From assembly GCA_963768095.1 (NCBI GenBank), contig CAVYGT010000002.1:1438294-1502293 (forward strand): a DNA stretch of 64,000 nt, written 5' to 3'. Every line of letters begins with the position of its first letter. Position 1 is the first letter of the stretch. Made by a program: the position numbers and the translations under genes. The stretch comes from Terriglobia bacterium. GTDB lineage: Bacteria > Acidobacteriota > Terriglobia > Bryobacterales > Bryobacteraceae. The notes beneath the pieces were generated by a model. That model ran no database searches. It saw only the letters and a program-made list of their open reading frames with translations, and had not been told where the DNA came from. Positions 30,034 through 54,798 of the stretch are shown piece by piece.

Positions 30034-30150
30034 CAAGTTTTCCCCAGTGCAGGCTAAAAAGTACCAAGCCGCGGGGCGCGCGCCCGCAGATGTTTCATTG
30101 CAACTTCATAAAGTTCAAGCCGGCGGCGATTGGAACCCCGCTTGCTACTG

Positions 30151-30624
30151 ATGCGTCCCATGTGGAATAAATCACGTGAGGCACAAGTGCCCTCATCCGC
30201 GCCAGCGCCCCAGACGCCGCCGCACCCGCAGCCATTGCACGATAGCGGCTCGACACGGCCGACAGTCTTCGGCAAATCGATGAAGATCATTGGAGAAGTG
30301 TCCAGCGACGAAGACTTGCAATTGGATGGCGACCTGGAGGGCAAGCTGACCCTGAAGAGCCGGCTCACCATCGGTCCGTCCAGCACAGTGAAAGCCAACA
30401 TCAAGGCCAAAGAGGTGGTGGTGGCTGGTACCGTCCACGGAAACGTGGAAGCGGAGAACCGCATAACGCTGCGCACCGGCGCGAACCTGGTGGGCGACAT
30501 CAAGACCGCCGGAATCGTGATTGAAGATGGCGCGTACTTCAAAGGCGGGATCGACATCTCAAAGCCTGAGCCATCAAAAGCTGCTCCGCGGGCGGCTGGC
30601 GCGGCGGCCGGCGATAAGCGCTAA
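30151..30624 (+). CDS. bactofilin (polymer-forming cytoskeletal protein)
   Basis: Beta-helical bactofilin core IIGEVSSDEDLQLDGDLEGKLTLKSRLTIGPSSTVKANIKAKEVVVAGTVHGNVEAENRITLRTGANLVGDIKTAGIVIEDGAYFKGGI. The start is uncertain: ATG at 30151 or at 30160. Confidence 0.85.
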   Translation: MRPMWNKSREAQVPSSAPAPQTPPHPQPLHDSGSTRPTVFGKSMKIIGEVSSDEDLQLDGDLEGKLTLKSRLTIGPSSTVKANIKAKEVVVAGTVHGNVEAENRITLRTGANLVGDIKTAGIVIEDGAYFKGGIDISKPEPSKAAPRAAGAAAGDKR

Positions 30625-30725
30625 CTCGCAAAAATCACGGATTTAGGGTAGTAACCGGTTCTCACGGAAAGCGATCTAACTAAGTGAGGCCGCACCCTCG
30701 CAAGAGGAACTGTGGCCGTGGGGGA

Positions 30726-30753
30726 GAACGCCCGTCAGCAATGGCGGGCGTTC
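30726..30753. terminator. GC-rich hairpin between convergent genes (bactofilin and caspase/TPR)
   Basis: Arms GAACGCCCG (30726-30734) and CGGGCGTTC (30745-30753) form a 9-bp stem with a 10-nt loop. There is no clear U-tract on either strand. Confidence 0.45.
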
Positions 30754-30757
30754 CCGC

Positions 30758-33568
30758 TTAGTGTAATGATTTTAGCTTGTTGTTGATCCGTTTGCGGGCC
30801 GCGCCGCTGGGCCTGAGCGCCAGTGCGGACTGATACGCCGACCGCGCGTCGCCTGGGTTGTGCCGGCTCGTTTCCAAATCCCCGATCCGCTCGAAGACTT
30901 CGGGATCCTGCGCGTCTTCCTTCGACACCTGGCGTAACTGCTCCAGCGCCTGATCATTTGCTCCGGTTTTGACCAGCAGCCCAGCCAGGGCGAGCCGGGC
31001 GCCGGCGTAATCCGGCTTCGCCGTCAGCACCTTCTGGTATTCATCGACGGCTGCCGCATTGTCGCCACGTTCAGCCAGCGTTGCGGCCAAGCTCAAGCGT
31101 GACGGCAGATAGTCCGGCGATTGGCGAAGATTCTCGCGCCACAGCTCGATCGCCTCTGGTTGCCGGTTTTTCTCGCTCGCCAGGAGCAGCGCCAGATTAT
31201 GCCGCGCCGGAAGCAGGCTCGCGTTCTTTTGTAGAGCTTCGCGATAGAGCTGTTCGGCATCGCTACGCTTGCCTTCCGAGGCTTTCAGTGTTCCCAATGC
31301 GTTGTAAGGCTCGGCCGAATTCGGTTCTAGCGAGAGCGCCTTTCGATAGGCGGCCTCCGCGTCGTTGCGCCGGTTCAAACGCTGGTAGACCAGGCCCAGG
31401 TTGTACGGCAAATAGCTGTACTGCGGCGTCAGCCGGATGGCGTCCTGATAGGCGCGAATCGCGGATCTGTAGTCGCCCATCTCGACGTACGCCAAGGCCT
31501 CATTGTGCAGCGGATAGGACCAGTGCTGCGCGCGTCGGATCGCGTCGTGAAAGGCCGGAAGCGCTTTGTCGTATTGCGCCTGCTCCAGGTAGGCGATGCC
31601 GAGGGCATTGAAGCCGTATGCGCCGCCGGGGTCGATGCGCACGGATTGTTCCAGTAATTGCGCCGCTTCCGGAAATTTCTTGTCGAACAGCAAAGCGCGT
31701 CCTTGAAAGAAATCCTGCCGGCCCTCCAGGAATAACGATTCCTGGGTCAGCATCCGCGCGGCGCTCATGTAGAGCGCGCCCTGTTCGAACGCAGCCCGCG
31801 CTTGCGGCGTCTCGTCGCCCTCCAGGTACCGCAGCAGGACTTGTTGCGCTCTGTTCTCGAGCGCTACTTGAAGCTGGTTTTTGCGCTCCTGGTATTGTTC
31901 CGGGCTGATCTGCGCTTGCAGAGCCTGGAGCGCGCTGAAGGCGTTGTCGGGATCGGACGGCAGAAGCCGGCCGGCAGCGATGGCTGAAGTGAATCGATCC
32001 ACGTCATCGGCACCCTGATCGTCAAAGAGCCCGGTGGGCGCACCGCTCGCGGCAACATATCGCGGCTCGCCGCTGCGCGAATCGAAAATCATGCGCCAGT
32101 GCGCTATGTTGATCCCCGGCTTGCGGAGGTCCGAAAGCTGCATGGCATTGTCGTAGGTGCCGAATTCGCGCGGGTGCTGTTTATCGTTCGTCGCCATCTG
32201 CACCTGATCGGTGACGTATTTGATCAGTTCGTTGGCATCCACGTTGCCGTCGTGGTTCTCGTCGGCGGCGCTTTCCAGGCCCTTGATCACGTAATAGCTG
32301 AACACACCGTGGCCGCCGCCGAACTGCGGACCTTCGAGCGAAACCTCCTTGGGACGGCTGGCCAACAGACCGAACAAGTCGCCTTCGACATCTCCGAGCT
32401 GCTGGACGTTCGCGCTCACCATGGTGTTGTGGATGGTGCCGATCGTTCCGGCCTTGCAGACGTCCACGAATAAAAGTACGCGCCCCACTTTGCTGAGCTG
32501 GTCCTCAAAGAGCGACTGAAGCTCGGGCATTGGCAAAGCCGTGCTCTTCAGATCCTGCGGATCGGAGTCGTAGGTCAGGATGTACGCATTCTTGCTGCCA
32601 GGTACTTCCACCGTGCCGTGGCCGGCGATCAGAATCACAACCGTGTCGTTCTTGCCGGCGCGGCGTTTTATAAAGTCCTGGAAGCCGTTGCGGACGGCAG
32701 CGGTGGTGGCTTTTTCGTCGGTCAGCAACAGAACGTTGCCAGGCGGCAGACCGCCGCCGCGCGGGCTTTCCAGAAGTTGGCTGAAAACGCTGGCGTCCGC
32801 ATCGGCGAATTGCAGCGACAACTCCGGCTTCGCATATTTCGAGATTCCCACCAGCAGCGCGTAGGTTTGCCCGCCAGCCGTAGCGGCCGCCGTCGCTGAT
32901 GACACTTGAGCCGCCAGAGCTTCTTCCAAGTCGAAAATCTTGGCTTTGATCCAGACGGCATCGGGCCATTGCTCGCGCAGCTTGTAGTAAGCCTCTAGCG
33001 CGTTGGCGATCAGTTTGTGATTCTCGAAAACCGTCGCCTCACCGATCAACGCTGCCTGATCTTTAGGATTGGCCGCCAGCACGGTATCAAACGGCGCGAG
33101 CTCGGAGATTACGTCGGCCGCCAGCTTATCGCGCGGTGTGGGCGCCACCTCCGGCTTGTTGATGCCGCGCGTCATGCTCACGCCATAATGCTGCTGGCTC
33201 GCTACCGCCACACGCAACGTCTGCGGCAACGTGCAGGCGCGGGCCGGCTGCTCGGAGATCTTGCCCGACCGTACTTTCGGCTGCTTGGCTTCGAAGCGGA
33301 CTTCTCCTGACGCGCTGAGCGTATCGATCGCTTTGGCTGGACAGAACAGGAATGACGCCGCACCGGTCTCCGTCTTTAAACCGTCGCCCGCAAAGAGCAG
33401 ATCGCCGGAGCGCGCCGAGAGCGGAGTTTCGGTATCGGCACGCAGCAGCTTGCTGCCCGCTGCGTTCAGAACCAAACCAACCGGTTGCTCTTGCGTGTCG
33501 GCATCGGCGAACCGGCCGGCTAGAACCAGAAGAGCGACCGCGAAAACTTGAACAACTCGACTACGCAT
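30758..33568 (-). CDS. secreted FecR-like / peptidase C14 (caspase) / EF-hand / TPR-repeat protein
   Basis: Signal peptide MRSRVVQVFAVALLVLAGRFADA and a FecR-like pattern SGDLLFAGDGLKTETGAASFLF. The caspase fold has YALLVGISKY, His in ILIAGHGT and Cys in FVDVCKAGT. An EF-hand loop DENHDGNVDANE follows, then many TPR units in the C-terminal roughly 450 aa. The ATG at 33568 overlaps the upstream cyclase gene by 8 nt. Confidence 0.85.
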   Translation of the reverse strand: MRSRVVQVFAVALLVLAGRFADADTQEQPVGLVLNAAGSKLLRADTETPLSARSGDLLFAGDGLKTETGAASFLFCPAKAIDTLSASGEVRFEAKQPKVRSGKISEQPARACTLPQTLRVAVASQQHYGVSMTRGINKPEVAPTPRDKLAADVISELAPFDTVLAANPKDQAALIGEATVFENHKLIANALEAYYKLREQWPDAVWIKAKIFDLEEALAAQVSSATAAATAGGQTYALLVGISKYAKPELSLQFADADASVFSQLLESPRGGGLPPGNVLLLTDEKATTAAVRNGFQDFIKRRAGKNDTVVILIAGHGTVEVPGSKNAYILTYDSDPQDLKSTALPMPELQSLFEDQLSKVGRVLLFVDVCKAGTIGTIHNTMVSANVQQLGDVEGDLFGLLASRPKEVSLEGPQFGGGHGVFSYYVIKGLESAADENHDGNVDANELIKYVTDQVQMATNDKQHPREFGTYDNAMQLSDLRKPGINIAHWRMIFDSRSGEPRYVAASGAPTGLFDDQGADDVDRFTSAIAAGRLLPSDPDNAFSALQALQAQISPEQYQERKNQLQVALENRAQQVLLRYLEGDETPQARAAFEQGALYMSAARMLTQESLFLEGRQDFFQGRALLFDKKFPEAAQLLEQSVRIDPGGAYGFNALGIAYLEQAQYDKALPAFHDAIRRAQHWSYPLHNEALAYVEMGDYRSAIRAYQDAIRLTPQYSYLPYNLGLVYQRLNRRNDAEAAYRKALSLEPNSAEPYNALGTLKASEGKRSDAEQLYREALQKNASLLPARHNLALLLASEKNRQPEAIELWRENLRQSPDYLPSRLSLAATLAERGDNAAAVDEYQKVLTAKPDYAGARLALAGLLVKTGANDQALEQLRQVSKEDAQDPEVFERIGDLETSRHNPGDARSAYQSALALRPSGAARKRINNKLKSLH

Positions 33569-35423
33569 TAACCGCAGCCTTAGCGACCAGCGACGCGACC
33601 GTATACAAATCGATAGGCAGCGCCTTCCCACGCACCGGAGCGATCCCCAGGTGCACAGTGTCGACGCCGCTCCCGAGCCGGCTCTGAGTCGCGCCCGTCA
33701 TGAGCAGCTTGGTATGGCGCTCCTTGTTCAGGCTCTCGAGACGCGAAGCCAGATTCACGGTATCTCCCAAGACTGTATATTCCATTTTATCGGCCGAGCC
33801 CACGTTCCCGACAACCGCGGGACCCGTGTGGATGCCGGCGCCGGTTTGAAACTGGCTGGACGCAGTGACGATGCGCGTGGCGCAGCGCACCGCCCGCAAA
33901 GCGTGATCGCCCGGCTGAGCCCCCTCATCTTCATCGCAAAAAATGGCTAGAATGCCATCGCCGATGAACTTGTTGGCATGGCCGTGAAACATGACGATGA
34001 TGCCCACCATCATGGTCATGTATTCGTTCAGCAGGCGCACCACTTCTTCCGGTCCTTGCTTGGCGCAAACGTCCTCGCTGAACGCCGTGAATCCGCGAAT
34101 ATCGGTGAACAGCACGGTCACCTCCATGGTCTTGCCGGACAGCGCGATGGTTTGCGTCTCTTCGAGCGAGGTTGCAAGTTGTTTTCCGACGAACAGCGAG
34201 ACGGCGCGCTGGAACAGATTGCGGCCCTTCTCCTCGGTCCCGAACCGGTACAGCACGGAGGCGACCAGGCAAATGGACGTCGCCAGCAGAATCTCGGATG
34301 TCGAGAGAATGAAGCCGCCTTCGAAAAGAAGATGCGTTGCAGCGATGACCCCGACGAATTCGAGCACCATGAAGGCCGCCGCACGGGCCGCACGCATCGA
34401 CGTCGTAATCCATACCGCAAGCACGGTAGCCAGGAGCAGCGTGAGGATGCGTACCCAATTCGCCGCGGGCTGCAGATATCGATGTTCCAGGATGGTGCGA
34501 ATCGTGTTGGCGTGGATCTCAACTCCCGCAGTGGTCCATTTGGGACCGCTGAAGAGCGTATAGAAAGGTGTGGCCTGTCGATCTTCATCGGCGAAATCGA
34601 CACCCATCAGCACGATTTTGCCGTTCACCCAGCTATGGAGCTTGGCCATGTCTCCCGCCTTGGCTGCCGCCTCAACGTCCGCCATCGAATATCGGGGAAA
34701 CGTCCCGGGCGGGCCGGCGTAGTTGATGGCGATGGTCCGATCCGCCGATATGGGGATCCGTTGTCCTGCCAGAATCAGTTGGCCGTTTTGAAACTGCGCG
34801 TCAGACCCCACGTACTTTTCAGACACACGCAGGGCAAACGAGCGCGCCAGCGGTGCGTCGCCGGACTTGCCCGGTTCCTCGATCAGCTCCTGCCTGCGAA
34901 CAAAATCGTCGGCATCGGAAGTGAGATTGGCGAAAGCCCCCAAACCGAGCGCCGCCGCCAGCATGTTTATCGGAATGGCCTGAGAGCTTACGTTGGTGTT
35001 CAACTCGGTAACATAGCTGCATACCACGGGCGCCGGCGAAGTGCTGACAGCCTCGCCCAGCAGGCGATCGTAGTCCGGCTGCCACTGGTCCACCGCAACC
35101 CCGATCGCCAGATCCATGCCAATCACCTTAGCTCCGGCTTCCCCGGCCGCGTGGATAATGTCAGCATAGTGTTTTTGCCAGAAAATTCTCGGTTCCGGAA
35201 AAGTATCTAAGGTCTTCTGGTCGGCAACCAAAAGGACGATGTTAGATATCGTGGGTTGGGGACGCAAGAGGCTGCGCAGGACGAAGTGTGCGTCGTATGC
35301 CTTCAGGTTGAGAATCTGGAAGAAACGCAGGTCTCCTAGCGACCAGGCGGCCAGCGCGCTCCCGCCCGCAAGGATTGCGCAGAGCCCCCAATGCCGCCAC
35401 TTGCGCTTCATGGTAACCTGCAT
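33561..35423 (-). CDS. CHASE2 sensor domain-containing class III adenylate cyclase
   Basis: N-terminal TM helix, a periplasmic CHASE2-like region (NIVLLVADQKTLD..VIGMDLAIG), and a TM bundle. The cyclase core has VTVLFTDIRGFTAFSE, NKFIGDGILAIF, GIHTGPAVVGNVGS and YTVLGDTVNLASRLES. The start is either 35423 or the ATG at 35411. Confidence 0.9.
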   Translation of the reverse strand: MQVTMKRKWRHWGLCAILAGGSALAAWSLGDLRFFQILNLKAYDAHFVLRSLLRPQPTISNIVLLVADQKTLDTFPEPRIFWQKHYADIIHAAGEAGAKVIGMDLAIGVAVDQWQPDYDRLLGEAVSTSPAPVVCSYVTELNTNVSSQAIPINMLAAALGLGAFANLTSDADDFVRRQELIEEPGKSGDAPLARSFALRVSEKYVGSDAQFQNGQLILAGQRIPISADRTIAINYAGPPGTFPRYSMADVEAAAKAGDMAKLHSWVNGKIVLMGVDFADEDRQATPFYTLFSGPKWTTAGVEIHANTIRTILEHRYLQPAANWVRILTLLLATVLAVWITTSMRAARAAAFMVLEFVGVIAATHLLFEGGFILSTSEILLATSICLVASVLYRFGTEEKGRNLFQRAVSLFVGKQLATSLEETQTIALSGKTMEVTVLFTDIRGFTAFSEDVCAKQGPEEVVRLLNEYMTMMVGIIVMFHGHANKFIGDGILAIFCDEDEGAQPGDHALRAVRCATRIVTASSQFQTGAGIHTGPAVVGNVGSADKMEYTVLGDTVNLASRLESLNKERHTKLLMTGATQSRLGSGVDTVHLGIAPVRGKALPIDLYTVASLVAKAAVNA

Positions 35424-35465
35424 CTTACTACGGCGGTGCTGCCAAGGCGCTTTAGAGCCTCAATC

Positions 35466-38400
35466 ATGATTTTTCGCCGGGGAGCGCTTGCCTTTCTCAC
35501 CTTCTACGCAACTGCTGTCTTCGCGCAGACCACGCAAGGCCTGATTTCAGGCCAGTTAGTCAACTCTGTCACCGGACGGCCGATCGCCGGCGCGAACGTC
35601 CTCTATTCGAGTTCGCTGAGCAATCTCGCAGGCGCCTCGCAAAGCGATTCGAGCGGATATTATTACCTGCCCTTGCTCTCTCCAGGCTTCTATCAGATTC
35701 GCGTGAACGCCGAGGGCTTCCAATCGCAAGAGGTTCAGGAAATCGAGCTGACCGTGGCCGCGCGCATCGAGCTGGACTTCCGGCTCCGCCCGCTCAGCGA
35801 CGTCTGGGAATCCGGCCAGTACAACAGCGTTTTCCTTCCCGGCTCCAAGACCATTGTCACGTTCTACGGTCCGGACGTGGATCCCAGCAAGACCGGTTCC
35901 TTTGAGGCACAAAAGGGCCGGCGCGCCCCGCTGGAATCCACGGTCTCCCAGGTGATCGACTCCGGCGAAATCAACAATCTTCCTTTGGAGGGCCGGGATG
36001 TTTACACCATGCTGGTCACGCAGCCCGGTGTTACTTCTGACGCCGCGCTGGGCCGTGGCCTCGGGCTCTCGGTCAACGGGCAGCGGCCCTCGGCGTCGAA
36101 TTTTCTGCTGGACGGGGTCGAGAACAACAACTATCTGATCACTGGGCCGCTGAATACCCTGCCGCCCGAGGCGATTGAGGAGTATCGCATCTCCACCAAC
36201 AACTTTTCGGCCGAGTATGGCCGTACTTCCGGCTTCCTGGCGAACGCGATCACTCGCTCCGGAAGCAACGTGTTTCACGGCGTCGCGTATTTCTATCTGA
36301 TGAACGACGTCTTGAACGCGAATGGCTTTCAGGAAAACGCCCAGGGCGCGCCGCGTTCGCCGGATAAACAAGCCGAACCTGGCTACGTCTTCGGTGGGCC
36401 CATACTCAAAGACCGGCTCTTTTTCCTCAGCACATTCGATTACTTTCATAACGGCAGCCACGACGATCCCGCTACGTTCGTAGTGCCATCCACCAGCTTT
36501 GTATCGCAGTACACCGGGCCGGGGTCCCTTGCCCGCCAATTGCTGACCGAATTTCCTGCCCCGGCCGCAACCAACGGCAACCTACCTGTGGCTCAATTGA
36601 CGCTCGCACCGCCCGTGACCATCAATCGCGACCAGGCCATCGAGCGCTTGGACTACAACACGCCCAGCCAGAAGGACCGCATCATGGGGCGAGTTCTGTT
36701 CAATCAGCTGGGCCGTCCGGATTTCATTTGGTCGCCGTACAAGGATTTCGTTTCGGCTTTGAACGAATACACGGTGGAAGGCGCGATCAGTTACGTTCGG
36801 CTGTTCCGTCCGAATCTGACCAACGAAGCGCGATTCAGCGGGAGCGTCGACAACCTGCACTGGGACCGCCCGCATCCTGAAATCCCGACGCTCGCCGCGG
36901 CCGCAACCTATTTGCCGGGCGACGTCACCTTGCCCGGCAGTCCGGCGTTTTACGCCTACAAAAACGTCAACAAGAGCTGGGAAATGCTGGACAACCTGAT
37001 CTGGTCCCATGGCCAGCATCTTGTAACTTTCGGCGCAGGCCTGCTGTTGCGATCTTCCAGCGGCTATCTGACCGCCGGGCAAGCGGGCGAGTACCTTTTC
37101 CCCAGTATTCTTTCATTCGCTCTTGGCCAGCCGCTCGGTCCGCAACAACCGGTTTACTACGAGGCGCCCATCGATCGCTCGGCGCTCCCGAATCTGCAAC
37201 TGCCGGACTTCAACCGCAGCTACGGCTATGCACAGTACTTCCTGTTCGCGCAAGACACCTACAAGATCACCCGACGGCTTACCGTAAACTACGGGCTCCG
37301 ATATGAATTTTACGGTGGACCGCAAAACACGGGAGCCACTAAGGACGAGTTGGTTCAGCTTGGCTCCGGCGCGACTCTGGCTCAACAGCTTGTAGGTGCA
37401 TCCTTAACCCAACCCGGCGCGGGCGACGAGCAACTCTTCCGCTCGGACAAAGGCGATTTTGCCCTACGCCTGGGCGCGGCTTACGACCTCTTCGGCACCG
37501 GCCGCACACTGCTGCGCGGGGCTTACGGAACCTTCTACGATCGCCCATTTGACAATCTCTGGGAAAATGTCCGGAATAACAACTTCATCCTTCCGGTGCT
37601 CACGCTCCCGGCTGGACCAGTAAACTATCTGGCGCCCGTTGCGGACCAGTTGGCTACATTCCGTGGCCAAAAAATTCCGAGCGCATTTCCGGACCTGACC
37701 CTGGTCGATCCCAACCTCCGCAGCGGCTACGCGCGCAGTTATTTTGCCGGCGTACAGCAGAGCGTCACCGCGAATTTCACACTGGAAGTGAACGCTCTCG
37801 GCTCTTACGGCCGGCAGTTGATTACCACCGACATTATCAATCGCGATTTCTCGACCCTCGCCGGCCGATATAATCCCAACCTTCCCGACATCGCCTACCG
37901 CGCCAACCAGGGCTTCTCGGACTACAACGCGCTGACGGCGGTGGCGCGCTACCGCACCGGGCGGGGAATTGTGCAGGCCTCCTACACCTGGAGCCACAGC
38001 ATCGATAATCAGAGCGATCCGCTGATCGGCGATTTCTTCAATCTGGATTTCACCGCCATTCAGACTGCTTCGCCATCGATCGGGCGCGCTGCATTTTCCG
38101 AACAGTTCAATCCCTATGCCGACCGCGCCAGTTCGGACTTCGATCAGCGCCAAAATCTGGTGATTTTCTCGTACTGGAATCTGCCGTCTCCATTCCCCAA
38201 TTCGAAGTGGGGACTGCTGCTGCACGATTGGACCGCCGGAGAATTGGCCGCGTTCCGCAGCGGGTTCCCATTCACCGTGTTTGGCACGACGAACGTCGTT
38301 CCGGGCGGCGGCCTCATCATCCTGAACCGAGTCAACATCGTCAATCCGAATGAGACGGTGTTGGCCAATCCGATTCCCGTTCCGGGCGGCGAGCAGTTGC

Positions 38401-38744
38401 TGAATCCAGCGGACTTCGCGGAAGCAGCCCCGAGCGTGCTCGGCAACGAAGGGCGCAATGCTTTCACCGGCCCAGGATTCTATAGCCTCGACCTTTCGCT
38501 GGCCCGTGCCTTCCCGTTGCGGTGGCTGGGTGAAGGCGGACGTGTGCGCTTCCGCGCCGATTTCTTCAACGTGCTCAATCACGCCAATCTTGGCAATCCC
38601 GACGCGCTCTTCACTTCTCCGGTATCGTCGACGTTTGGAATCGCAACCTTCGGCCGGCAAGGTTTTCAGTCCGGATTCCCGGCCCTTAGCCCGCTTAACG
38701 AGACCCCACGTCAGATTCAGCTCAGCGTAAGAGTTGAGTTCTAG
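35466..38744 (+). CDS. TonB-dependent receptor with carboxypeptidase-regulatory-like N-domain
   Basis: Signal peptide MIFRRGALAFLTFYATAVFAQ, CarboxypepD_reg-like ISGQLVNSVTGRPIAGANV, a plug region NNLPLEGRDVYTMLVTQPGV, and a C-terminal beta-barrel ending ..QIQLSVRVEF. Confidence 0.9.
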   Translation: MIFRRGALAFLTFYATAVFAQTTQGLISGQLVNSVTGRPIAGANVLYSSSLSNLAGASQSDSSGYYYLPLLSPGFYQIRVNAEGFQSQEVQEIELTVAARIELDFRLRPLSDVWESGQYNSVFLPGSKTIVTFYGPDVDPSKTGSFEAQKGRRAPLESTVSQVIDSGEINNLPLEGRDVYTMLVTQPGVTSDAALGRGLGLSVNGQRPSASNFLLDGVENNNYLITGPLNTLPPEAIEEYRISTNNFSAEYGRTSGFLANAITRSGSNVFHGVAYFYLMNDVLNANGFQENAQGAPRSPDKQAEPGYVFGGPILKDRLFFLSTFDYFHNGSHDDPATFVVPSTSFVSQYTGPGSLARQLLTEFPAPAATNGNLPVAQLTLAPPVTINRDQAIERLDYNTPSQKDRIMGRVLFNQLGRPDFIWSPYKDFVSALNEYTVEGAISYVRLFRPNLTNEARFSGSVDNLHWDRPHPEIPTLAAAATYLPGDVTLPGSPAFYAYKNVNKSWEMLDNLIWSHGQHLVTFGAGLLLRSSSGYLTAGQAGEYLFPSILSFALGQPLGPQQPVYYEAPIDRSALPNLQLPDFNRSYGYAQYFLFAQDTYKITRRLTVNYGLRYEFYGGPQNTGATKDELVQLGSGATLAQQLVGASLTQPGAGDEQLFRSDKGDFALRLGAAYDLFGTGRTLLRGAYGTFYDRPFDNLWENVRNNNFILPVLTLPAGPVNYLAPVADQLATFRGQKIPSAFPDLTLVDPNLRSGYARSYFAGVQQSVTANFTLEVNALGSYGRQLITTDIINRDFSTLAGRYNPNLPDIAYRANQGFSDYNALTAVARYRTGRGIVQASYTWSHSIDNQSDPLIGDFFNLDFTAIQTASPSIGRAAFSEQFNPYADRASSDFDQRQNLVIFSYWNLPSPFPNSKWGLLLHDWTAGELAAFRSGFPFTVFGTTNVVPGGGLIILNRVNIVNPNETVLANPIPVPGGEQLLNPADFAEAAPSVLGNEGRNAFTGPGFYSLDLSLARAFPLRWLGEGGRVRFRADFFNVLNHANLGNPDALFTSPVSSTFGIATFGRQGFQSGFPALSPLNETPRQIQLSVRVEF

Positions 38745-38756
38745 GCCGAACCGCTG

Positions 38757-38805
38757 GCGTTCGCATGAGCGCGAACGCGGCACGCACGAGTGCGTGCGCC
38801 ACAGG
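38757..38805 (+). repeat. 49-nt double-hairpin intergenic element, copy 1
   Basis: Sequence GCGTTCGCATGAGCGCGAACGC GGCACGCACGAGTGCGTGCGCCACAGG. It is 45/49 identical to the reverse complement of 58366..58414. It lies between the receptor stop (38744) and the PQQ dehydrogenase start (38833). Confidence 0.8.
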
Positions 38806-38832
38806 CTATCATTGAAACACACGGAGACCTGC

Positions 38833-40935
38833 ATGTATCTCAAGTTCCCAGTTTGCGCCCTAGCTCTATGCACGATGCCGATCGCCTTCGCCCAATGGCA
38901 CGCCAAGGACACCGAGTGGCCCAGCTACAACGCCGACCTCACCGGCTCGCGCTATCGCCCGCTCGATCAGATTAGCGCCTCCAACTTCAACAAGCTTGAA
39001 GTGGCGTGGCGCTTCAAGACCGACAGCATCGGCAACCGCCCGGAATACAAGCTGGAAGGCACTCCTCTCATGGTCAACGGCGTCCTGTATGCGACTGCGG
39101 GCTCCCGCCGCGCGGCAGTCGCGCTCGATGCGGCCACTGGTGAATTGCTTTGGGTCCACGGCGAGCATGAAGGCGAACGCGGCGCGTCCGCTCCCCGCCA
39201 GCTCTCCGGACGCGGCCTGGCCTACTGGTCCGACGGCAAGGAAGAGCGGATTTTCTACGTAACCCCGGGTTTCCGCCTGGTCGCCCTGGATGCCAAGACC
39301 GGCGCGCTCATCCCGTCCTTCGGAAAGAACGGCATGGTGGATCTGAAACTCGACGACGATCAAACCATCTCCGCGTGGAATGACAAAGGCGAATGGGTGC
39401 CCGATCTGGTGCACGGTGAAATCGGAATCCAGTCGGCTCCCGTAGTCGCGAAAGATACCATCCTGATCGGCGCGGCGTTCCGCGAAGGCATGACGCCCAA
39501 GAGCATGCGCAACAACAAAGGCTACGTGCGCGGCTTCGACGTTCGCACTGGAAAGCGCCTCTGGACCTTCCACACTATTCCGAAGAAGGGCGAGTTCGGC
39601 TACGACACCTGGCAGAACGGATCCGCCGAGTATACCGGCAACACTGGCGTATGGGCGCAGATCACCGTCGACGAACAGCTCGGCCTCGTATATCTTCCGG
39701 TGGAATCGCCCACCGGCGACTACTACGGCGGCCATCGTCCCGGCAACGATCTGTTCGGCGAGAGCCTGGTCTGCGTCGATCTGAAAACCGGCCAGCGCAA
39801 GTGGCATTACCAACTGGTCCATCACCCGCTGTGGGACATGGACATTTCTTCCGCGCCTTTGCTTGGCGACATCAATGTCAACGGCAAGGCCATCAAAGCG
39901 GTCGCGGTTCCAACCAAGCAAGGCTTTCTGTACGTCTTCGACCGCGTCACGGGACAGCCCGTCTGGCCCATCGAAGAGCGCCCGGTAGAAAAAGGCAACG
40001 TGCCGGGCGAGTGGTACGCCCCGACGCAGCCGTTCCCCACCAAGCCGCCGGCCTACGCCCGCAACGGCGTCACGCCCGACGTGCTGATCGATTTCACGCC
40101 TGCGCTCCACGATCAGGCCTTGACCAACGTAGCGAAGTTTAAGATTGGTCCGGTGTTCACGCCCCCGGTCGAAAGCAAGCTCGACGGGCCGTATTCGACG
40201 CTCACGCTCGGCACCGCCGCGGGCGGTACCAACTGGCCCGGCGGCTCCTACGATCCCGAAACTCACACGGTTTACGTGTTTGCGTGCAACGCCTGCCTGG
40301 TTCCGATCGGCGTGGTGGAATCGCCCAAGGAAGTTTCCGACATGAAGTATGTCATGGGAATGGCCGGGCAAAAGGTGCAGATCGCGCGCGGCCCGGGCGA
40401 GAACTCCGGCGCAGATTCTCCACGCACTCCTCGCGCATCGACCCCGCCTCCCGCGCCGCCGCCCGCCGCCAGCCCAGGCCCCAATATCTACAGTCTTCTG
40501 AGCGTGCGCGGCCTGCCGCTCATCAAGCCACCGTATGGAACCATCTCGGCCATCAATCTCGACCAAGGCGAAATTGTCTGGCAGGTCGCCCACGGCGACA
40601 CTCCCGACGGCATCCGCAACAATCCCGCGCTTAAGGGGCTCGACATTCCCAAGACCGGCCAGTCGGATTACAACGTCGGCACCCTGGTCACGAAAACTCT
40701 CGTGATCGCCGGCGACGGCCAAGTCACAACCACTGCCGCTCATCCACGCGGCGCGATGCTGCGCGCTTACGATAAGACCAACGGCCAGCAGGTCGGCGCG
40801 GTCTGGATGCCTGCGCCTCAGAGTGGATCGCCCATGACTTACATGCTGAATGGCAAGCAATACATCGTCGTGGCCATCAGCGGCGGCGCGTATTCGGGCG
40901 AATACGTCGCGTTCTCGCTTCCGTCGGCCGAGTAG
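38833..40935 (+). CDS. secreted PQQ-dependent dehydrogenase (8-bladed beta-propeller), paralog A1
   Basis: Signal peptide MYLKFPVCALALCTMPIAFAQ. Repeated A/D-x-D-x-x-T-G-x-x-x-W blade motifs: ALDAATGELLWVH, ALDAKTGAL, GFDVRTGKRLWTF, CVDLKTGQRKWHYQLVHHPLWDMD, FDRVTGQPVWPIEE, AINLDQGEIVWQ. A GGAG sits 7 nt upstream of the ATG at 38833. Confidence 0.85.
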   Translation: MYLKFPVCALALCTMPIAFAQWHAKDTEWPSYNADLTGSRYRPLDQISASNFNKLEVAWRFKTDSIGNRPEYKLEGTPLMVNGVLYATAGSRRAAVALDAATGELLWVHGEHEGERGASAPRQLSGRGLAYWSDGKEERIFYVTPGFRLVALDAKTGALIPSFGKNGMVDLKLDDDQTISAWNDKGEWVPDLVHGEIGIQSAPVVAKDTILIGAAFREGMTPKSMRNNKGYVRGFDVRTGKRLWTFHTIPKKGEFGYDTWQNGSAEYTGNTGVWAQITVDEQLGLVYLPVESPTGDYYGGHRPGNDLFGESLVCVDLKTGQRKWHYQLVHHPLWDMDISSAPLLGDINVNGKAIKAVAVPTKQGFLYVFDRVTGQPVWPIEERPVEKGNVPGEWYAPTQPFPTKPPAYARNGVTPDVLIDFTPALHDQALTNVAKFKIGPVFTPPVESKLDGPYSTLTLGTAAGGTNWPGGSYDPETHTVYVFACNACLVPIGVVESPKEVSDMKYVMGMAGQKVQIARGPGENSGADSPRTPRASTPPPAPPPAASPGPNIYSLLSVRGLPLIKPPYGTISAINLDQGEIVWQVAHGDTPDGIRNNPALKGLDIPKTGQSDYNVGTLVTKTLVIAGDGQVTTTAAHPRGAMLRAYDKTNGQQVGAVWMPAPQSGSPMTYMLNGKQYIVVAISGGAYSGEYVAFSLPSAE

Positions 40936-41010
40936 TCCGAGCGCCGCTCCAAGCGGCTTTGATTCGCGCTATCATCTCTCGCAGGCCAAAAGGCCACGAG
41001 GAGAGAGCGC

Positions 41011-43125
41011 ATGAATTCGACCGGCGCCCTGGCCGCAGTAACTGTTCTCGCGTGCTTCACGCCGCTAGCGTCCGCGCAGTGGCATCCAAAAGATACCGAA
41101 TGGTGGAGTTACAACGCCGATGTGACCGGTAGCCGCTACCGGCCGCTGGATCAAATCAACGCCTCCAACTTCAACCAGCTGGAAGTCGCCTGGCGCTTCA
41201 AGACCGACAGTATCGGAAATCGCCCGGAATACAAATTGGAAGGCACGCCCCTCATGGTCAACGGCGTGGTCTACGCGACAGCGGGCTCGCGCCGCGCCGC
41301 CGTTGCATTGGACGCGGCCACCGGCGAGTTGCTGTGGGTACATGGCGAGCATGAAGGCGAGCGGGGCGCCTCTGCTCCACGCGCTCTATCGGGCCGGGGC
41401 CTAGCCTATTGGTCAGACGGCAAGGAAGAGCGCATCATCTATGTCACCGGCGGCTACAGACTGGTGGCGCTTGATGCCAAGACCGGCTCGCTCATCCCGT
41501 CCTTCGGCAAAAACGGCATCGTCGATCTCAAGCTCGACGACGACCAAAACATCTCCGCCTGGAACGAGAAAGGCGAATGGGTACCCGATCTGGTGCACGG
41601 CGAGATCGGACTGCAATCGGCGCCGGTTGTCGCCAAAGACACCATCCTCGTCGGCGCAGCGTTCCGCGAGGGCATGACTCCCAAGAGCATGCGCAACAAC
41701 AAGGGCTATGTGCGCGGCTTCGACGTCCGCACCGGCAAGCGCCTGTGGACCTTCCACACCATCCCGATGAAAGGTGAGACCGGCTATGACACCTGGCTCA
41801 ATGGATCGGCCGAGTACACCGGAAACACCGGCGTGTGGAACCAAATCACCGTGGACGAACAACTCGGCCTCGCGTATCTGCCAGTGGAATCGCCCACCGG
41901 CGATCTCTACGGCGGCCACCGCCCCGGCAATAATCTGTTCGGCGAGAGCCTGGTCTGCGTGGATCTGAAGACCGGCAAACTCAAATGGTATTTCCAGATG
42001 GTCCACCATCCGCTGTGGGACATGGACGCCTCGGCCGCCCCGCTGCTGATGGACATCAACGTCGATGGCAAACCGATCAAAGCGGTCGCGCTACCGTCGA
42101 AACAGGCCTTGCTGTACGTATTTGATCGCGCCACGGGCAAACCCGTGTGGCCCATCGAGGAGCGCCCAGTCGAGAAGGGCGAAGTTCCCGGCGAGTGGTA
42201 TTCACCGACGCAGCCTTTCCCCACCAAGCCGCCCGCCTACGCACGCAACGGCTTCACGCCTGACGTTCTGGTTGACTTCACGCCCGCAATTCGCGATCAG
42301 GCGCTGACCCAGGCGTCGCGATACAAAATGGGTCCGGTCTTCACGCCGCCAGTCGTCAGCAATGCCGGTGGCCCTCTCAGCACATTGAATCTCGGCGGCC
42401 CGCTCGGTGGCACCAACTGGCCCGGCGGCTCATTCGATCCTGAAACGCATACCGTCTACGTCTACGCCTGCAATTCATGTATCTACCCGACCGGCCTGGT
42501 TCCCTCGCCGAAGGAAGTCTCGGATATGAGATACGTCTCCGGCAACGATGGCCAGCGAATCCAAATCGCCAGAGGACCAGGGGAAGCGGGTGGCGCCGAT
42601 CAGCCGATGGCTCAACGGCCTCCGACTCCGCCAGCTGGTGGCCGCGGCGGCGCACCCGCGGGGGGCGGCCTCGGCGTGCTCAGCGGCCTCACGGTACAGG
42701 GGCTGCCAATCGTCAAGCCGCCTTATGGAACGATCTCGGCCATAAATCTGGACCGGGGCGAGATCGTCTGGCAAACGCCCCACGGCGACACGCCGGACTC
42801 GGTCCGCAACAACCCCGCGCTGAAGGGCCTCAACATCCCGAAAACCGGCCAGTCCACCTACAATGTCGGGACACTCGTAACGAAGAGCCTGGTGATCGCC
42901 GGCGACGGGCAAATCACCACCACTCCAGAACATCCCCGCGGCGCCATGTTGCGGGCCTACGACAAATCCACCGGAAAAGAAGTCGGCGCAGTCTGGATGC
43001 CGGCGCCTCAGAGCGGCTCTCCCATGACCTATGCGCTCAACGGCAGGCAATACATCGTGGTCGCGGTCAGCGGCGGCAACTATTCGGGCGAGTACCTCGC
43101 CTTCAGTCTTCCATCCACGGATTAA
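41011..43125 (+). CDS. secreted PQQ-dependent dehydrogenase, paralog A2
   Basis: Has the same motif series as A1, with long identical peptide runs, and a signal peptide ..VLACFTPLASAQ. Confidence 0.85.
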   Translation: MNSTGALAAVTVLACFTPLASAQWHPKDTEWWSYNADVTGSRYRPLDQINASNFNQLEVAWRFKTDSIGNRPEYKLEGTPLMVNGVVYATAGSRRAAVALDAATGELLWVHGEHEGERGASAPRALSGRGLAYWSDGKEERIIYVTGGYRLVALDAKTGSLIPSFGKNGIVDLKLDDDQNISAWNEKGEWVPDLVHGEIGLQSAPVVAKDTILVGAAFREGMTPKSMRNNKGYVRGFDVRTGKRLWTFHTIPMKGETGYDTWLNGSAEYTGNTGVWNQITVDEQLGLAYLPVESPTGDLYGGHRPGNNLFGESLVCVDLKTGKLKWYFQMVHHPLWDMDASAAPLLMDINVDGKPIKAVALPSKQALLYVFDRATGKPVWPIEERPVEKGEVPGEWYSPTQPFPTKPPAYARNGFTPDVLVDFTPAIRDQALTQASRYKMGPVFTPPVVSNAGGPLSTLNLGGPLGGTNWPGGSFDPETHTVYVYACNSCIYPTGLVPSPKEVSDMRYVSGNDGQRIQIARGPGEAGGADQPMAQRPPTPPAGGRGGAPAGGGLGVLSGLTVQGLPIVKPPYGTISAINLDRGEIVWQTPHGDTPDSVRNNPALKGLNIPKTGQSTYNVGTLVTKSLVIAGDGQITTTPEHPRGAMLRAYDKSTGKEVGAVWMPAPQSGSPMTYALNGRQYIVVAVSGGNYSGEYLAFSLPSTD

Positions 43126-51131: not shown

Positions 51132-51252
51132 TGAAGTCGTCCTTTTCCTGGGTCTTGGCCGTTGTTCAAAATCTCTGGGACTGGCAGCCGGATTTTTTTG
51201 GTGTCCGCTAGGTGAGCCGTCCCAACCATGCGTGGCCATCAAGGAGATTGCC

Positions 51253-54200
51253 GTGAAATTCAATCGATTTCTGGTTCTCGTGACTGCGCTGGTAATCGCC
51301 GCAGTCATCGCATTCGCTCAATCCTACGTCGGTGAAGTCCGCGGTGTAGTTCAGGACCCGGGCGGCGCCGTCATCGCCAATGCCAATGTCACGCTGCGAA
51401 ATGACGCCACCGGCACGATGCGCACCACGGTGAGCAATTCGGCAGGTGAATATGTGTTTCCGCAAGCGGATCCAGGAACGTACACCGTCCTGGTCGAAAC
51501 TCCCGGCTTCAAGAAACTCGAACACAAGGGAGTTATTGTTGGGACCCAGGAAAAGGTGCGGCTCGATCTCAAGCTGGAATTGGGCGAGATCAGCCAGAGT
51601 GTCTCGGTAACCACCGAAGCTCCGCTAATCGAAAACGAGACCGCATCGAACGGCCAGGTGATCACGACCCAGCAGCTCGACGACCTGCCCAACCTCGGCC
51701 GCAACACATTCTTGATGTCGAAGTTGTCCAACAACGTCGTCCCTTCCGGCCCGCCGCAGTGGAACCGTTTCCAGGATCAGATCGGTTCTTCGAATCTTTC
51801 AATCGGCGGCGGCCCGATTCGCGCTAACAACTATTTGATAGACGGCGTTCCGATCACCAGCTCCCAGAATCTTGCCATCATTATCCCCAGTGAAAGTGCG
51901 GTGCAGGAAATGAAGCTCCAGGAAGACACCTATGACGCCACCATGGGGCGCACCGGCGGCGGCGTCTTCAACACCGTGATTCGCGGTGGGAGCAACGATA
52001 TACACGGCGACGCGCTCGGCTACTACCGCACCACGGACTTCACGGCCAACAAATTCTTCAACAACGCGGCCGGCACGCTTCCGAACGGACAACAAGTAGA
52101 TCCGCGGCCATCCGAGCTATGGGAGAACTGGGAGTTTTCGCTCGGTGGCCCCGTGGTTATCCCCAAGGTCTACAACGGAAGGAACAAGACATTCTTTTTC
52201 GTTTCCACCGAAGGCTATCTGGAAGGTCAGCCGGATGCGGGCAGCGCCGCTGTGCCAACGGCCGCCGAGCTTGGCGGCAATTTCACGAATTCAGGCAGGA
52301 TCATCTACGACCCGCTCAGCGGCCGTCCCTGCCAGCCTAGCGACAATTGCCCCGCAGGCGCCACCGTCATCCGCACGCCGTTCCCGAACAACGTCATCCC
52401 CGGGGGCGAAATCAATACCATCGGCCGGGCCATCCTTGGTTATCTGCCTGGGGCCAATACAAACCTGGGCGGCTCGCTGGGCCAGAGCAATTTCCAGGGC
52501 ACCGATACGCTCGCCAACCATGCCGAAGAATATATCTATAAGCTCGATGAAGATCCGACGCAATGGTTGCGCCTGAGCGGATCGTTTCTCTACTACAAGA
52601 GCGAAGAGCACGGTTCGAACTTCCTCAACATCGCGCCAGGTTCCGGCTCTTACCTGCTATTCAGGCACGTCGATGCAACCGCAGTCAACGCCACCATTAC
52701 GGTCAATCCGACTACCGTGCTCAATGCGCGATATGGCTTCAACCGTTTCCCCAATATCTACAATTACCCCAGCTATGGCTTTAATCAGACTTCGCTTGGG
52801 TTCCCGGCCAACTATGTGGATCAAGTCCAGGTGCCTCAGTTCCCAAGCATCAATCTGTCCGAATTAGGCACCATGTTCGGCAACGGCTCACATTCGCAGA
52901 CTGTCTACTGGTCGAAGAATGCATCGTTCGGCGTGTCGAAATTCATTGGAAAGCACAATATCACTGCGGGGTTCGACTATCGAAAGATCCATACCGATGG
53001 CGTCGGCTTCACGAACGGACAGGGCCAGTTCACCTTTAACGGAATCTTTAGCCAGCAATTCAACGCTGGTACCAGCGCCACCACCGGAAGCGACGTGGCG
53101 GACGCTCTGCTCGGCTTCCCATCGAGCGGCTCAATCGGCACCTTCTCCAACACAGACTTCTTCGTGAATTACTATGCCGGCTACATTCAGGACGACATTC
53201 ACGTCAATAGTCGCCTGACGGTAAACGTCGGGCTGCGTTATGAATATGAGACCGGCGAAGCGGAACAATATAACAACATGCTGGTCGGTTTCAACCGCAC
53301 CGCGACCAACCCGATTCAGGCGCAACTACCGCCCGGATCAGGCGTGCTCGCCAATGGCTTGCCGCTTGTTGCGAACCAAAACGGAAATCCCAGCGCCTGC
53401 TGCAATGCCTTGCAGGACAAATTCGGACCACGTCTCGGCTTCGCCTACCAGATCAATGACAAAACTACCTTCCGCGGCGGCTGGGGTATCTTCTACGCTC
53501 CGGTCTATTTCTCGCTCGACAACCCTTACTCGCCTGGCCTAGGCCAGACCACTAACTATACGGCCAGCACCAACGGCAACGCGACGGCGGCCAATTCGCT
53601 GAGCAATCCCTACCCCAACGGCGTTCTCCAGCCGGCAGGTATCCTCACCGGCGTCAGCACGCTGTATGGCCAAACGGTCACTTTCGCGGACCAGAATCGA
53701 ACGCAGGGACGCGTGCAACAGTTCTCGGCTGACCTCCAGCGCCAGTTGCCTTGGGGCATTGCGGCCGAAGTCGGTTATGTCGGCTCGCGAACCAGCAATT
53801 TGCAGTTCGGTACTACCGGCAGCGGACTGCTCCCGATCAATCAATTACCCCTCCAGTACATGTCCCAAGGTTCGGCATTGACGAAATCCGTCGCGAATCC
53901 CTTCCATGGACTTCCCGGCGTCGGTGGAGTCCTGGCCGGCGCAACCGTCTCTCAAGCTCAATTGCTCTTGCCGTTCCCGGAATACCAACAGGTGTACGAC
54001 TCTAATACCGGAGCCAAGGCCCAGTACGATTCGTTGAACCTCAGAGCTGCCAAGCGGCTGTCGCACGGAGCTACGTTCGTGTCCACCTTCACATGGGCGC
54101 GCAATTACGACAATGAGTTTGGCTCCGGCACTTCGAATTACTACAACAGTACCGACAACAGCATCCCGACATACCCTCAGAACGTCTACAACCTCGCATC

Positions 54201-54798
54201 CGAGTGGGCCCTTGCTGCTGGAACGGTGCCGTGGCGCTTCACCACCGGATTCACCTATAACCTCCCGTTCGGGAAGGGAAGGACCTGGGTAAACAACAGT
54301 ACGGCTCTCGATTACATCGTCGGTGGTTGGTCGTTCAACGGGGTTTTCATCGACCAGGCGGGCTTCCCTCTCGAGGTCTTTCAGCCTAACAGCAATTCCG
54401 GCATCGGCGCTGGGGCGCAACGTCCCAATGCAACCGGACTCGCGGCCACTGGTTCTGGAACTCCCGAGTCGCGGCTGTACAACTACATCAACCCTGCCGC
54501 GTTCTCGCTAGCGCCTCAGTATACGTTCGGCAACGCCTCGCGATTCATTCCCAACTACGGTCCGGGTTTGGCCAATTGGGATCTCTCGCTGTTTAAGGAC
54601 TTCACGGTGAAAGAGCGATTCCACGGCCAGTTCCGTGCCGAGGCTCTGAACGCTTTCAACACGCCCAACTTCAACAACCCGTACATGCAGTTCACCGGCG
54701 TCAAGTCCAATGGACAGGCGGCCGGAAACTTCGGGCGAATCCTTTCGCAAGCCAATCTGCCGCGAGAACTGCAGCTCGGAATCCGCCTGTACTTCTAG
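51253..54798 (+). CDS. TonB-dependent receptor with carboxypeptidase-regulatory-like N-domain
   Basis: The GTG at 51253 is preceded by AAGGAG (51241-51246); the track ORF starts at 51232. The signal peptide is followed by VRGVVQDPGGAVIANANVTLRN, plug region LDDLPNLGRNTFLMSKL, and a C-terminus ..[10 protein letters not shown]. Confidence 0.9.
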   Translation: MKFNRFLVLVTALVIAAVIAFAQSYVGEVRGVVQDPGGAVIANANVTLRNDATGTMRTTVSNSAGEYVFPQADPGTYTVLVETPGFKKLEHKGVIVGTQEKVRLDLKLELGEISQSVSVTTEAPLIENETASNGQVITTQQLDDLPNLGRNTFLMSKLSNNVVPSGPPQWNRFQDQIGSSNLSIGGGPIRANNYLIDGVPITSSQNLAIIIPSESAVQEMKLQEDTYDATMGRTGGGVFNTVIRGGSNDIHGDALGYYRTTDFTANKFFNNAAGTLPNGQQVDPRPSELWENWEFSLGGPVVIPKVYNGRNKTFFFVSTEGYLEGQPDAGSAAVPTAAELGGNFTNSGRIIYDPLSGRPCQPSDNCPAGATVIRTPFPNNVIPGGEINTIGRAILGYLPGANTNLGGSLGQSNFQGTDTLANHAEEYIYKLDEDPTQWLRLSGSFLYYKSEEHGSNFLNIAPGSGSYLLFRHVDATAVNATITVNPTTVLNARYGFNRFPNIYNYPSYGFNQTSLGFPANYVDQVQVPQFPSINLSELGTMFGNGSHSQTVYWSKNASFGVSKFIGKHNITAGFDYRKIHTDGVGFTNGQGQFTFNGIFSQQFNAGTSATTGSDVADALLGFPSSGSIGTFSNTDFFVNYYAGYIQDDIHVNSRLTVNVGLRYEYETGEAEQYNNMLVGFNRTATNPIQAQLPPGSGVLANGLPLVANQNGNPSACCNALQDKFGPRLGFAYQINDKTTFRGGWGIFYAPVYFSLDNPYSPGLGQTTNYTASTNGNATAANSLSNPYPNGVLQPAGILTGVSTLYGQTVTFADQNRTQGRVQQFSADLQRQLPWGIAAEVGYVGSRTSNLQFGTTGSGLLPINQLPLQYMSQGSALTKSVANPFHGLPGVGGVLAGATVSQAQLLLPFPEYQQVYDSNTGAKAQYDSLNLRAAKRLSHGATFVSTFTWARNYDNEFGSGTSNYYNSTDNSIPTYPQNVYNLASEWALAAGTVPWRFTTGFTYNLPFGKGRTWVNNSTALDYIVGGWSFNGVFIDQAGFPLEVFQPNSNSGIGAGAQRPNATGLAATGSGTPESRLYNYINPAAFSLAPQYTFGNASRFIPNYGPGLANWDLSLFKDFTVKERFHGQFRAEALNAFNTPNFNNPYMQFTGVKSNGQAAGNFGRILSQANLPRELQLGIRLYF

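Follow-up and report, generated by a model that had tools for sequence, protein, structure and literature searches.

A CHASE2 adenylate cyclase gene overlapping the gene of a predicted exported caspase-fold protein in Bryobacterales

We analysed a stretch of 64,000 nucleotides (nt) from a Terriglobia bacterium of the Bryobacteraceae, a soil member of the Acidobacteriota (assembly GCA_963768095.1, contig CAVYGT010000002.1, positions 1,438,294 to 1,502,293), hereafter the 64-kb window, following up an earlier note made from the sequence alone. The ORF listing (ORF: open reading frame) and the translation show that two ORFs of the minus strand fill the interval 30758–35423. Gene A (33561–35423, minus strand), identified by ORF, translation and Pfam, encodes a membrane protein of 620 residues, a CHASE2 / class III adenylate cyclase; gene B (30758–33568, minus strand), identified by translation and homologs, encodes a multidomain protein of 936 residues with predicted export. 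All coordinates are positions in the window, and the residues of A and B are numbered from the start of each. The two genes overlap by 8 nt, as the earlier note had it: protein A ends with ...AVNA followed by the stop TAG at 33561–33563, and the ATG of B (33568) lies within the final codons of A, so that the junction reads ...GTT A[ATG CG]TAG (stop/start overlap ATGCGTAG, 33561–33568, minus strand). The ORF lister extends B out to a GTG at 33631; we prefer ATG 33568, since it yields a typical Sec signal peptide and relatives keep this start. A and B are a two-gene operon in the window. A scan of 30400–35700 for promoters and terminators gave nothing exceeding the shuffled expectation.

The first protein has the two halves that were announced for it. 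Its CHASE2 periplasmic sensor domain (residues 25–335, 34419–35351, minus strand) matches Pfam PF05226 far above the cut-off (E 6e-34, 118 bits against 26.3), so that the “CHASE2-like” sensor can be called CHASE2. This domain was reportedly defined in 2003 and, to our knowledge, its ligand and its activation mechanism are still undefined. It is preceded by a hydrophobic N-terminal segment at about residues 12–30 (WGLCAILAGGSALAAWSL)—read from the sequence, and weaker—and followed by three hydrophobic transmembrane segments (residues about 319–396, 34236–34469, minus strand) given by a Kyte-Doolittle scan with windows of 19 residues and a score above 1.6. Hydrophobic segments so placed around CHASE2 are the usual topology of CHASE2 receptors. 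The class III cyclase catalytic domain (residues 432–601, 33621–34130, minus strand; Guanylate_cyc, PF00211, E 4e-20) aligns with class III adenylate cyclases of known structure, among them OaPAC, bPAC, CyaB of P. aeruginosa (3R5G) and CyaC of Spirulina, at E values from 1e-20 to 1e-16, its motifs TDIRGF, KFIGDG (NKFIGD) and GDTVNLASRLE being in register. The core of class III cyclases comprises two metal-binding Asp, a substrate-binding Lys/Asp pair and the transition-state Asn and Arg; by analogy with the class, we take these to be here the metal Asp of TDIRGF and of GDG, the Lys of NKFIGD, and the Asp, Asn and Arg of GDTVNLASRLE. The complete catalytic core claimed by the earlier note is thus found again, motif by motif, in alignment with solved enzymes. 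The Lys/Asp pair suggests a specificity for adenylate, not guanylate, and it is plausible from the domain content that A is an active membrane adenylate cyclase with a periplasmic sensor.

The central part of B (residues 236–467, 32168–32863, minus strand) matches Peptidase_C14, the caspase/metacaspase fold, well above the cut-off (PF00656, E 8e-13, 49–50 bits against 21.4). The conservation of this region was read from 39 relatives of 27–57% identity, 26 of which match PF00656 at E<=0.01. Cys371 (codon 32456–32458) is kept in all 39, His317 (codon 32618–32620) in 37 with a Gln in the other two, and Asp258 and Asp369 are invariant (39/39 each); such a conservation of Cys, His and both Asp is the pattern expected under selection for catalysis. 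A search of solved structures with this region as a single sequence found no caspase, and the family profile is needed: it aligns with the yeast metacaspase Yca1 (4F6O) at E 5e-8, His and Cys falling in the catalytic columns, with aaHG opposite sGHG and DvCkaG opposite DSCHSG. The entry 4F6P, a C276A mutant, has Ala in that last column, which marks the catalytic Cys. The C14 fold with both dyad residues—a point on which, together with the CHASE2 profile, the earlier note let its proposal stand or fall—thus comes out of the profile matches and of the alignment with Yca1, and the positions it gave for His, Cys and the loop discussed below agree with ours once recomputed. With a caspase domain whose dyad looks intact and catalytic, B would have protease activity. 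The invariant Asp258 and Asp369 presumably sit at the acidic S1-pocket positions of metacaspases, and this pair suggests that B would cleave after Arg or Lys. An AlphaFold2 (AF2) model of residues 230–553 displays an alternation of strands and helices compatible with the caspase fold, at a quality too poor for a fold search (mean predicted local distance difference test score, pLDDT, of 45).

Inside the C14 domain lies an EF-hand-like DxDxDG loop, recognised by its motif (DENHDGNVDANE, residues 436–447, 32228–32263, minus strand). In the relatives D436, D440 and G441 are kept in 25–26 of 39, and 32 of 39 have E or D at position 447. C14 proteins that are built quite differently and have no evident signal peptide carry the same loop about 18 residues past their GGHG motif. 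No second EF-hand motif was found in B, the sole match being EF-hand_STIM1 below threshold (19–20 bits against 32). By its motif and its place, the loop is best described as a feature of the bacterial C14 subfamily to which B belongs and not as a separate EF-hand domain; a binding of Ca is possible. Of the canonical EF-hand first read in B the 12-residue loop holds and the separate domain does not, and the proposed regulation by Ca through an EF-hand comes down to a single loop within the C14 domain that about 25 of the 39 relatives retain.

The leader of B, MRSRVVQVFAVALLVLAGRFADA (33500–33568, minus strand), is a predicted signal peptide of Sec type: read from the sequence, it displays a basic n-region, a hydrophobic core and an A-D-A cleavage motif, without lipobox Cys. 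A similar hydrophobic leader starts all the full-length relatives (38/38), in line with the signal peptide seen at first reading, and suggests that B would be exported to the periplasm. The two invariant Cys of the following domain (C76 and C112) fit a periplasmic disulfide, as judged from their conservation.

This N-domain (residues about 26–135, 33164–33493, minus strand) is beta-rich, and profile comparisons relate it to DUF7354 (PF24045), the domain found at the N-terminus of the magnetotaxis protein MtxA. The direct match with DUF7354 has an E of 6e-6 and 26.4 bits. DUF7354 is nevertheless the sole recurrent match of the family, reached by 10 of 33 N-domains; the MtxA N-terminal fragment itself matches it at E 1e-33 (115 bits). 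By hhalign, the family profile of the B N-domain aligns with MtxA-N over 84 columns with a probability of 89.6% and an E of 2e-6, and in a profile search of solved structures the MtxA N-terminus ranked first, with a non-significant E of 0.29. From these comparisons the N-domain is best described as a divergent DUF7354/MtxA-N-like domain. It had been described as a FecR-like beta-sandwich, and every profile test we ran goes the other way: FecR (PF04773) has no match at E<=1 in the N-domain of the window or in the 33 of the family, Pfam and NCBIfam give none either, and hhalign with FecR of E. coli returns a probability of 0.3%, so that membership of the FecR family was rejected. With the start of the FecR domain of NsrA, a partner of CHASE2 cyclases in Sinorhizobium meliloti, there is a motif-level alignment (LLxGDxLxT...), non-significant (probability 4.5%), and “FecR-like” may be kept as an analogy only. 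Two N-domains of the family also match, very weakly (E 0.03), a LapA “retention module” model.

Between the N-domain and the caspase domain stands a helical linker resembling a TPR hairpin (residues about 151–231, 32876–33118, minus strand), to which point a weak TPR_16 match at residues 160–204 and an AF2 model of residues 22–235, where its four helices (pLDDT 77–93) are the only confident part of a model of mean pLDDT 55. After the caspase domain, B ends with an array of tetratricopeptide repeats (TPRs; residues about 545–935, 30764–31936, minus strand) matched by several Pfam TPR families with E down to 8e-26; the TPRs first noticed are there, over about 390 residues and not 450. This layout is that of a family: B has 797 close homologs, and a library clustered at 50% identity yields 873 clusters at E<=1e-30, dozens of which are full-length (850–990 residues) with the same layout and 27–57% identity.

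A genome scan for B loci added 80 loci, almost all under an Acidobacteriota label and most of them from Bryobacterales. This order is abundant in soil and peat, and the B family is common in it. Five are labelled otherwise: two Bordetella, one Acidimicrobiia and two Acidobacteriaceae. Three of these (L005, L074 and L069) are typical Bryobacterales-like B genes under Bordetella or Acidimicrobiia labels of metagenome-assembled genomes, and are probably mis-binned or mislabelled. In the fetched loci the gene calls are approximations based on ORFs, with uncertain individual start codons, and loci that are related do not count as independent samples. Of the 80 evaluable loci (82 in all, two not judgeable), 48 have A as the gene just upstream of B. 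At 27 of 46 A–B junctions the genes overlap by 1–11 nt—by 8 nt in 11 cases, by 4 nt in 14, otherwise in two—and the remaining junctions are gaps of at most about 60 nt. Close relatives (74–95% identity) have the whole neighbourhood in common, ATP synthase genes included, so that taken alone they say little about the pairing. The B proteins linked to A fall into one large clade of a neighbour-joining tree; some genomes have both an A-linked B and a paralog (L024 and L062, for example). The pairing thus goes beyond the chance adjacency that had to be considered: the link between A and B is real and old, yet confined to one clade and not universal in the B family.

A second neighbour, overlooked in the earlier note, is also conserved. 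Divergently from A is a gene for a TonB-dependent receptor-type outer-membrane protein (35466–38744, plus strand; CarboxypepD_reg, Plug and OMP_b-brl_4 by Pfam). The start given by the ORF lister, 35391, is probably too far upstream, and ATG 35466 is the likely one because a signal peptide results from it. By this start-codon reasoning and the sequence, a divergent intergenic region of 42 nt (35424–35465, strand not assigned) separates A from the receptor gene and is presumed to be a shared control region; it holds no promoter call above chance. Homologs of the receptor flank the A–B unit or a lone B in 44 of 82 loci (27 with A, 17 without), in three arrangements: upstream and divergent, downstream and co-directional, or downstream and convergent. 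By comparison, only 4 receptor-like ORFs lie away from B units in about 1.1 Mb of fetched sequence. As this association is spread over the whole B tree, the receptor may be an older partner of B than A is.

Other genes of the surroundings may be mentioned here. In the window the receptor gene is followed by two tandem genes of PQQ-dependent dehydrogenases (PQQ: pyrroloquinoline quinone; 38734–43125, plus strand), and 13 kb further on by another such receptor-type gene (1188 residues, 51232–54798, plus strand). Downstream of B, on the opposite strand, is a bactofilin gene (30130–30624, plus strand), 59% identical to the Pfam-annotated bactofilin of locus L002; an ORF of 167 residues (30054–30557, minus strand) was considered as a third gene of the operon and discarded as a shadow of this real gene. 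In 15 related loci—L032 (9802–10623) and 14 others (L017, L028–L046, L068)—B is followed within 0–79 nt by the gene of a cytoplasmic hydrolase of metallo-beta-lactamase (MBL) fold, of about 277 residues with the motif HxHxDH. It matches RNase Z models and, more weakly, the “cyclic nucleotide-degrading phosphodiesterase” NF041851 (E 1e-17), every one of these scores falling far short of its cut-off; from these matches it could be a phosphodiesterase of cyclic AMP (cAMP), as in a cluster of Campylobacterota compared below. In the nearest sub-clade (L003, 9741–11360, minus strand; L004–L007; L074), the gene just downstream of B and convergent with it encodes an NDH-2-like pyridine nucleotide-disulfide oxidoreductase with a C-terminal cyclic-nucleotide-binding domain, a candidate cAMP effector by its domains. 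Searches modelled on these related loci revealed no cyclic-nucleotide-binding, MBL-fold or phosphodiesterase-like gene in the 64-kb window. Some CHASE2-less paralogs of B have upstream a Ser/Thr protein kinase with a C-terminal DUF4384, plus a separate DUF4384 protein (L054, 4240–6986; L058; L066; L082); there, another transmembrane signalling partner may replace the cyclase. Finally, in L040, L043 and L047 (at about 9790–10800) a shorter B-like ORF of 285–329 residues comes directly after the full-length B, similar to its N-terminal half at E about 1e-93; it represents a partial tandem duplication or else a copy with a frameshift.

Altogether, we propose that the A–B operon encodes a signalling module across the envelope with cAMP as output, in which a proteolytic step due to B alters the inhibition of the cyclase by CHASE2; we regard this as an even call. 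A would sit in the inner membrane with CHASE2 in the periplasm and the cyclase domain in the cytoplasm, and B in the periplasm, on the CHASE2 side of the membrane. The N-domain and the TPR array of B would dock it to CHASE2, to the outer-membrane receptor, or to both, the neighbouring receptor gene probably belonging to the module, so that the signal would pass from the receptor to B, then to the CHASE2 cyclase and to cAMP. The caspase domain would cleave a periplasmic or imported protein or peptide, or a component of the module itself, and this cleavage would change the inhibition exerted by CHASE2 on the cyclase and hence the synthesis of cAMP. It is reasonable, given the predicted topologies, that a periplasmic caspase-fold B works with a periplasmic CHASE2. 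The N-domain provides an independent link to CHASE2 cyclases, since it resembles MtxA-N and mtxA lies beside the gene of such a cyclase. As for the inhibition, CyaD1 of S. meliloti deprived of CHASE2 and expressed from a plasmid produces cAMP constitutively (PMC5498481), which suggests that CHASE2 is inhibitory. A more detailed version would have a signal that enters by way of the receptor activate B, Ca2+ at the DxDxDG loop perhaps contributing, and B then cleave a ligand precursor or the inhibitory CHASE2 ectodomain, turning cAMP synthesis on; so specified, it is in our view unlikely. Of the module linking proteolysis to cAMP first suggested for this locus, the conserved and tightly coupled pair and the dyad survive, while its want of precedent, the FecR domain and the EF-hand do not.

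Several observations weigh against this proposal. Four loci nested in the A-linked clade have lost A (L012, L027, L044 and L050), and no CHASE2 gene adjoins B in the deeper clades of paralogs, which share at most 45% identity with B of the window: B can do without A, and may originally have been partnered with the receptor. The score of the N-domain for DUF7354 falls below the Pfam gathering cut-off (31.4 bits). Both AF2 models, built from shallow alignments of 35 sequences of 74–95% identity, are too poor (mean pLDDT 55 and 45) to judge the fold of the N-domain or the geometry of the dyad in three dimensions. The window search turned up no cAMP receptor gene. Besides, the proposal combines steps that we infer: the export of B, its contacts with A or with the receptor, its protease activity and the direction of the effect on cAMP.

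In another explanation, possible though rather unlikely to our mind, B is mainly an accessory of the receptor. It would be a periplasmic protease with a TPR scaffold that processes the proteins or peptides which the receptor takes up, and A would have been recruited later, in one clade, as a reporter of uptake—sensing cleavage products for example—without being directly regulated by B. The neighbourhood with the receptor is indeed older and wider than the pairing with A, as the 17 receptor-flanked loci lacking A and the 27 having it occur across the tree; the scarcity of receptor-like ORFs elsewhere in the flanks and the 42 nt between the divergent starts in the window go in the same direction. 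On the other hand the stop/start overlaps of A and B are tighter than any link between B and the receptor, about half of the loci have no adjacent receptor (several of those with short flanks), and DUF7354 and FecR recur as partners of CHASE2 in other phyla without TonB-dependent receptor (PMC4439547).

The caspase domain might also be a non-catalytic scaffold or binding module, B being then only a periplasmic co-sensor or adaptor like NsrA and MtxA. Known modules of the NsrA/MtxA type do work without protease domain (PMC4439547), pseudo-orthocaspases occur in bacteria (PMC6426788), and a Gln replaces the catalytic His in 2 of the 39 relatives. The constancy of Cys371 (39/39) and His317 (37/39) at 27–57% identity, with Asp258 and Asp369 likewise invariant, makes us hold this explanation quite unlikely. 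The conflict or death module that the earlier note kept as an alternative—a Pycsar-like cyclase with a nucleotide-triggered caspase effector, or a caspase system of EACC type—is very improbable: the cyclase domain does match PADLOC PycC (E 1e-20), B matches the generic PADLOC “caspase” (E 5e-15) and, below threshold, the NCBIfam “caspase, EACC1-associated type” (76 bits against 140), and caspase–CHASE2 fusions exist in conflict-type systems (PMC8195603), but the PADLOC and NCBIfam matches reach the shared domains only, B with its Sec signal and without cyclic-nucleotide-binding domain would have no means of reading a nucleotide in the cytoplasm, no effector with such a domain was found nearby in the 64-kb window, no NTPase, EAD or TRADD-type adaptor is among the domain matches, and the locus stays in stable, housekeeping synteny with ATP synthase genes, inherited with the lineage.

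If the proteolytic control of the cyclase by B proves true, it would be a second-messenger pathway gated by proteolysis across the Gram-negative envelope, and a role other than death for a bacterial caspase homolog. It concerns both the switching of CHASE2 receptors and the functions that exported bacterial caspase homologs have beyond cell death. The locus also links DUF7354 (MtxA-N) with CHASE2 signalling in a second phylum. The conserved Cys371 of the acidobacterial partner turns this into a hypothesis that can be mutated: changing Cys371 or His317 to Ala should alter the cAMP output.

The best-studied CHASE2 case, the NsrA-CyaK (and CyaD1/D2) system of S. meliloti, suggests that an outer-membrane or periplasmic partner relays a protein signal: NsrA and CHASE2 cyclases are needed for such a signal, the ribosomal protein uL2, to raise cAMP (PMC7529298, PMC13001267). 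We checked that NsrA comprises a FecR domain (residues 66–160), TPRs (417–531) and a C-terminal barrel, and that nsrA overlaps cyaK by 1 nt. The locus of the window has this type of layout, with the CHASE2 cyclase (33561–35423), B (30758–33568) and a barrel (35466–38744): in both, the gene of a CHASE2 class III cyclase overlaps that of an exported partner (here exported by prediction) with a beta-domain and TPRs, and an outer-membrane barrel is also encoded. The differences are as clear. NsrA is one polypeptide with FecR (PF04773), TPRs and its own barrel but no protease domain, whereas the N-domain of B is DUF7354-like and its C14 domain keeps the dyad intact, the barrel being a separate TonB-dependent receptor gene; the cyclase gene comes first here, the reverse order, and A is only about 25% identical to CyaK.

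MtxA of Magnetospirillum gryphiswaldense (MGR_0208), whose gene is followed in magnetotactic bacteria by that of a CHASE2 adenylate cyclase (PMC4439547), compares with B by its signal peptide, its DUF7354 N-domain, its TPRs, its periplasmic location (predicted for B) and its neighbour. It is nevertheless smaller (313 residues), has an Ig-like domain in place of the linker and caspase domain of B, and only two TPR motifs; mtxA also precedes the cyclase gene, unlike in the window. A homolog search seeded with the 89-residue N-terminal fragment of MtxA gave no candidates, and the general association of DUF7354 with CHASE2 is that described in PMC4439547. In Campylobacterota, a cluster comprises a CHASE2 cyclase, an outer-membrane protein with a FecR domain, a TPR protein and a phosphodiesterase (PMC9239204). 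The parts are the same as here, distributed there over separate genes, and the phosphodiesterase recalls the MBL-fold gene that follows B in 15 acidobacterial loci with its weak phosphodiesterase-family match; the cluster has no reported caspase domain, and FecR is fused there to the outer-membrane protein. In Burkholderia and P. aeruginosa, a LysM-FecR protein is paired with a CHASE2 histidine kinase (PMC5192318). In Azospirillum we found in a row a small protein, a CHASE2 cyclase and an ShlB-type barrel; the small protein, encoded upstream of the cyclase, gave no Pfam match and no similarity to the N-domain of B. Our literature search found no paper naming DUF7354 or a CHAT/caspase–CHASE2–ShlB cluster.

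On the protease side, B resembles bacterial orthocaspases and metacaspases by its predicted C14 fold, its His/Cys dyad and acidic residues presumed to be at S1-pocket positions. TPRs are a common partner of bacterial C14 domains (PMC3501461), and single polypeptides with both a caspase and CHASE2 are known from Trichodesmium and from EACC2 systems (PMC3501461, PMC8195603). The Trichodesmium chain combines a caspase and CHASE2 that are predicted to be cytoplasmic and extracytoplasmic, respectively; in our locus the caspase belongs to another protein than CHASE2, predicted to be exported and thus on the CHASE2 side of the membrane, and the output domain is a cyclase. In the LapD-LapG-LapA system, cyclic-nucleotide signalling by an inner-membrane protein is likewise coupled to a cysteine protease of the periplasm, which depends on Ca; LapG has a transglutaminase-like fold, and the flow is inside-out, cyclic di-GMP controlling the protease. 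The two protease folds being unrelated, this comparison concerns a way of working only, and no homology is claimed.

The locus was first presented as having no characterised example. This holds for a part of it only: the combination of a CHASE2 cyclase with an exported beta-domain/TPR protein and an outer-membrane barrel was already known, documented by NsrA-CyaK, the Campylobacterota cluster, MtxA and the Burkholderia pair, the partner being of FecR or DUF7354 type. What is new compared with these described systems is the caspase-fold domain with its conserved dyad in the presumably exported partner, and the TonB-dependent receptor as outer-membrane component, which appear in none of them.

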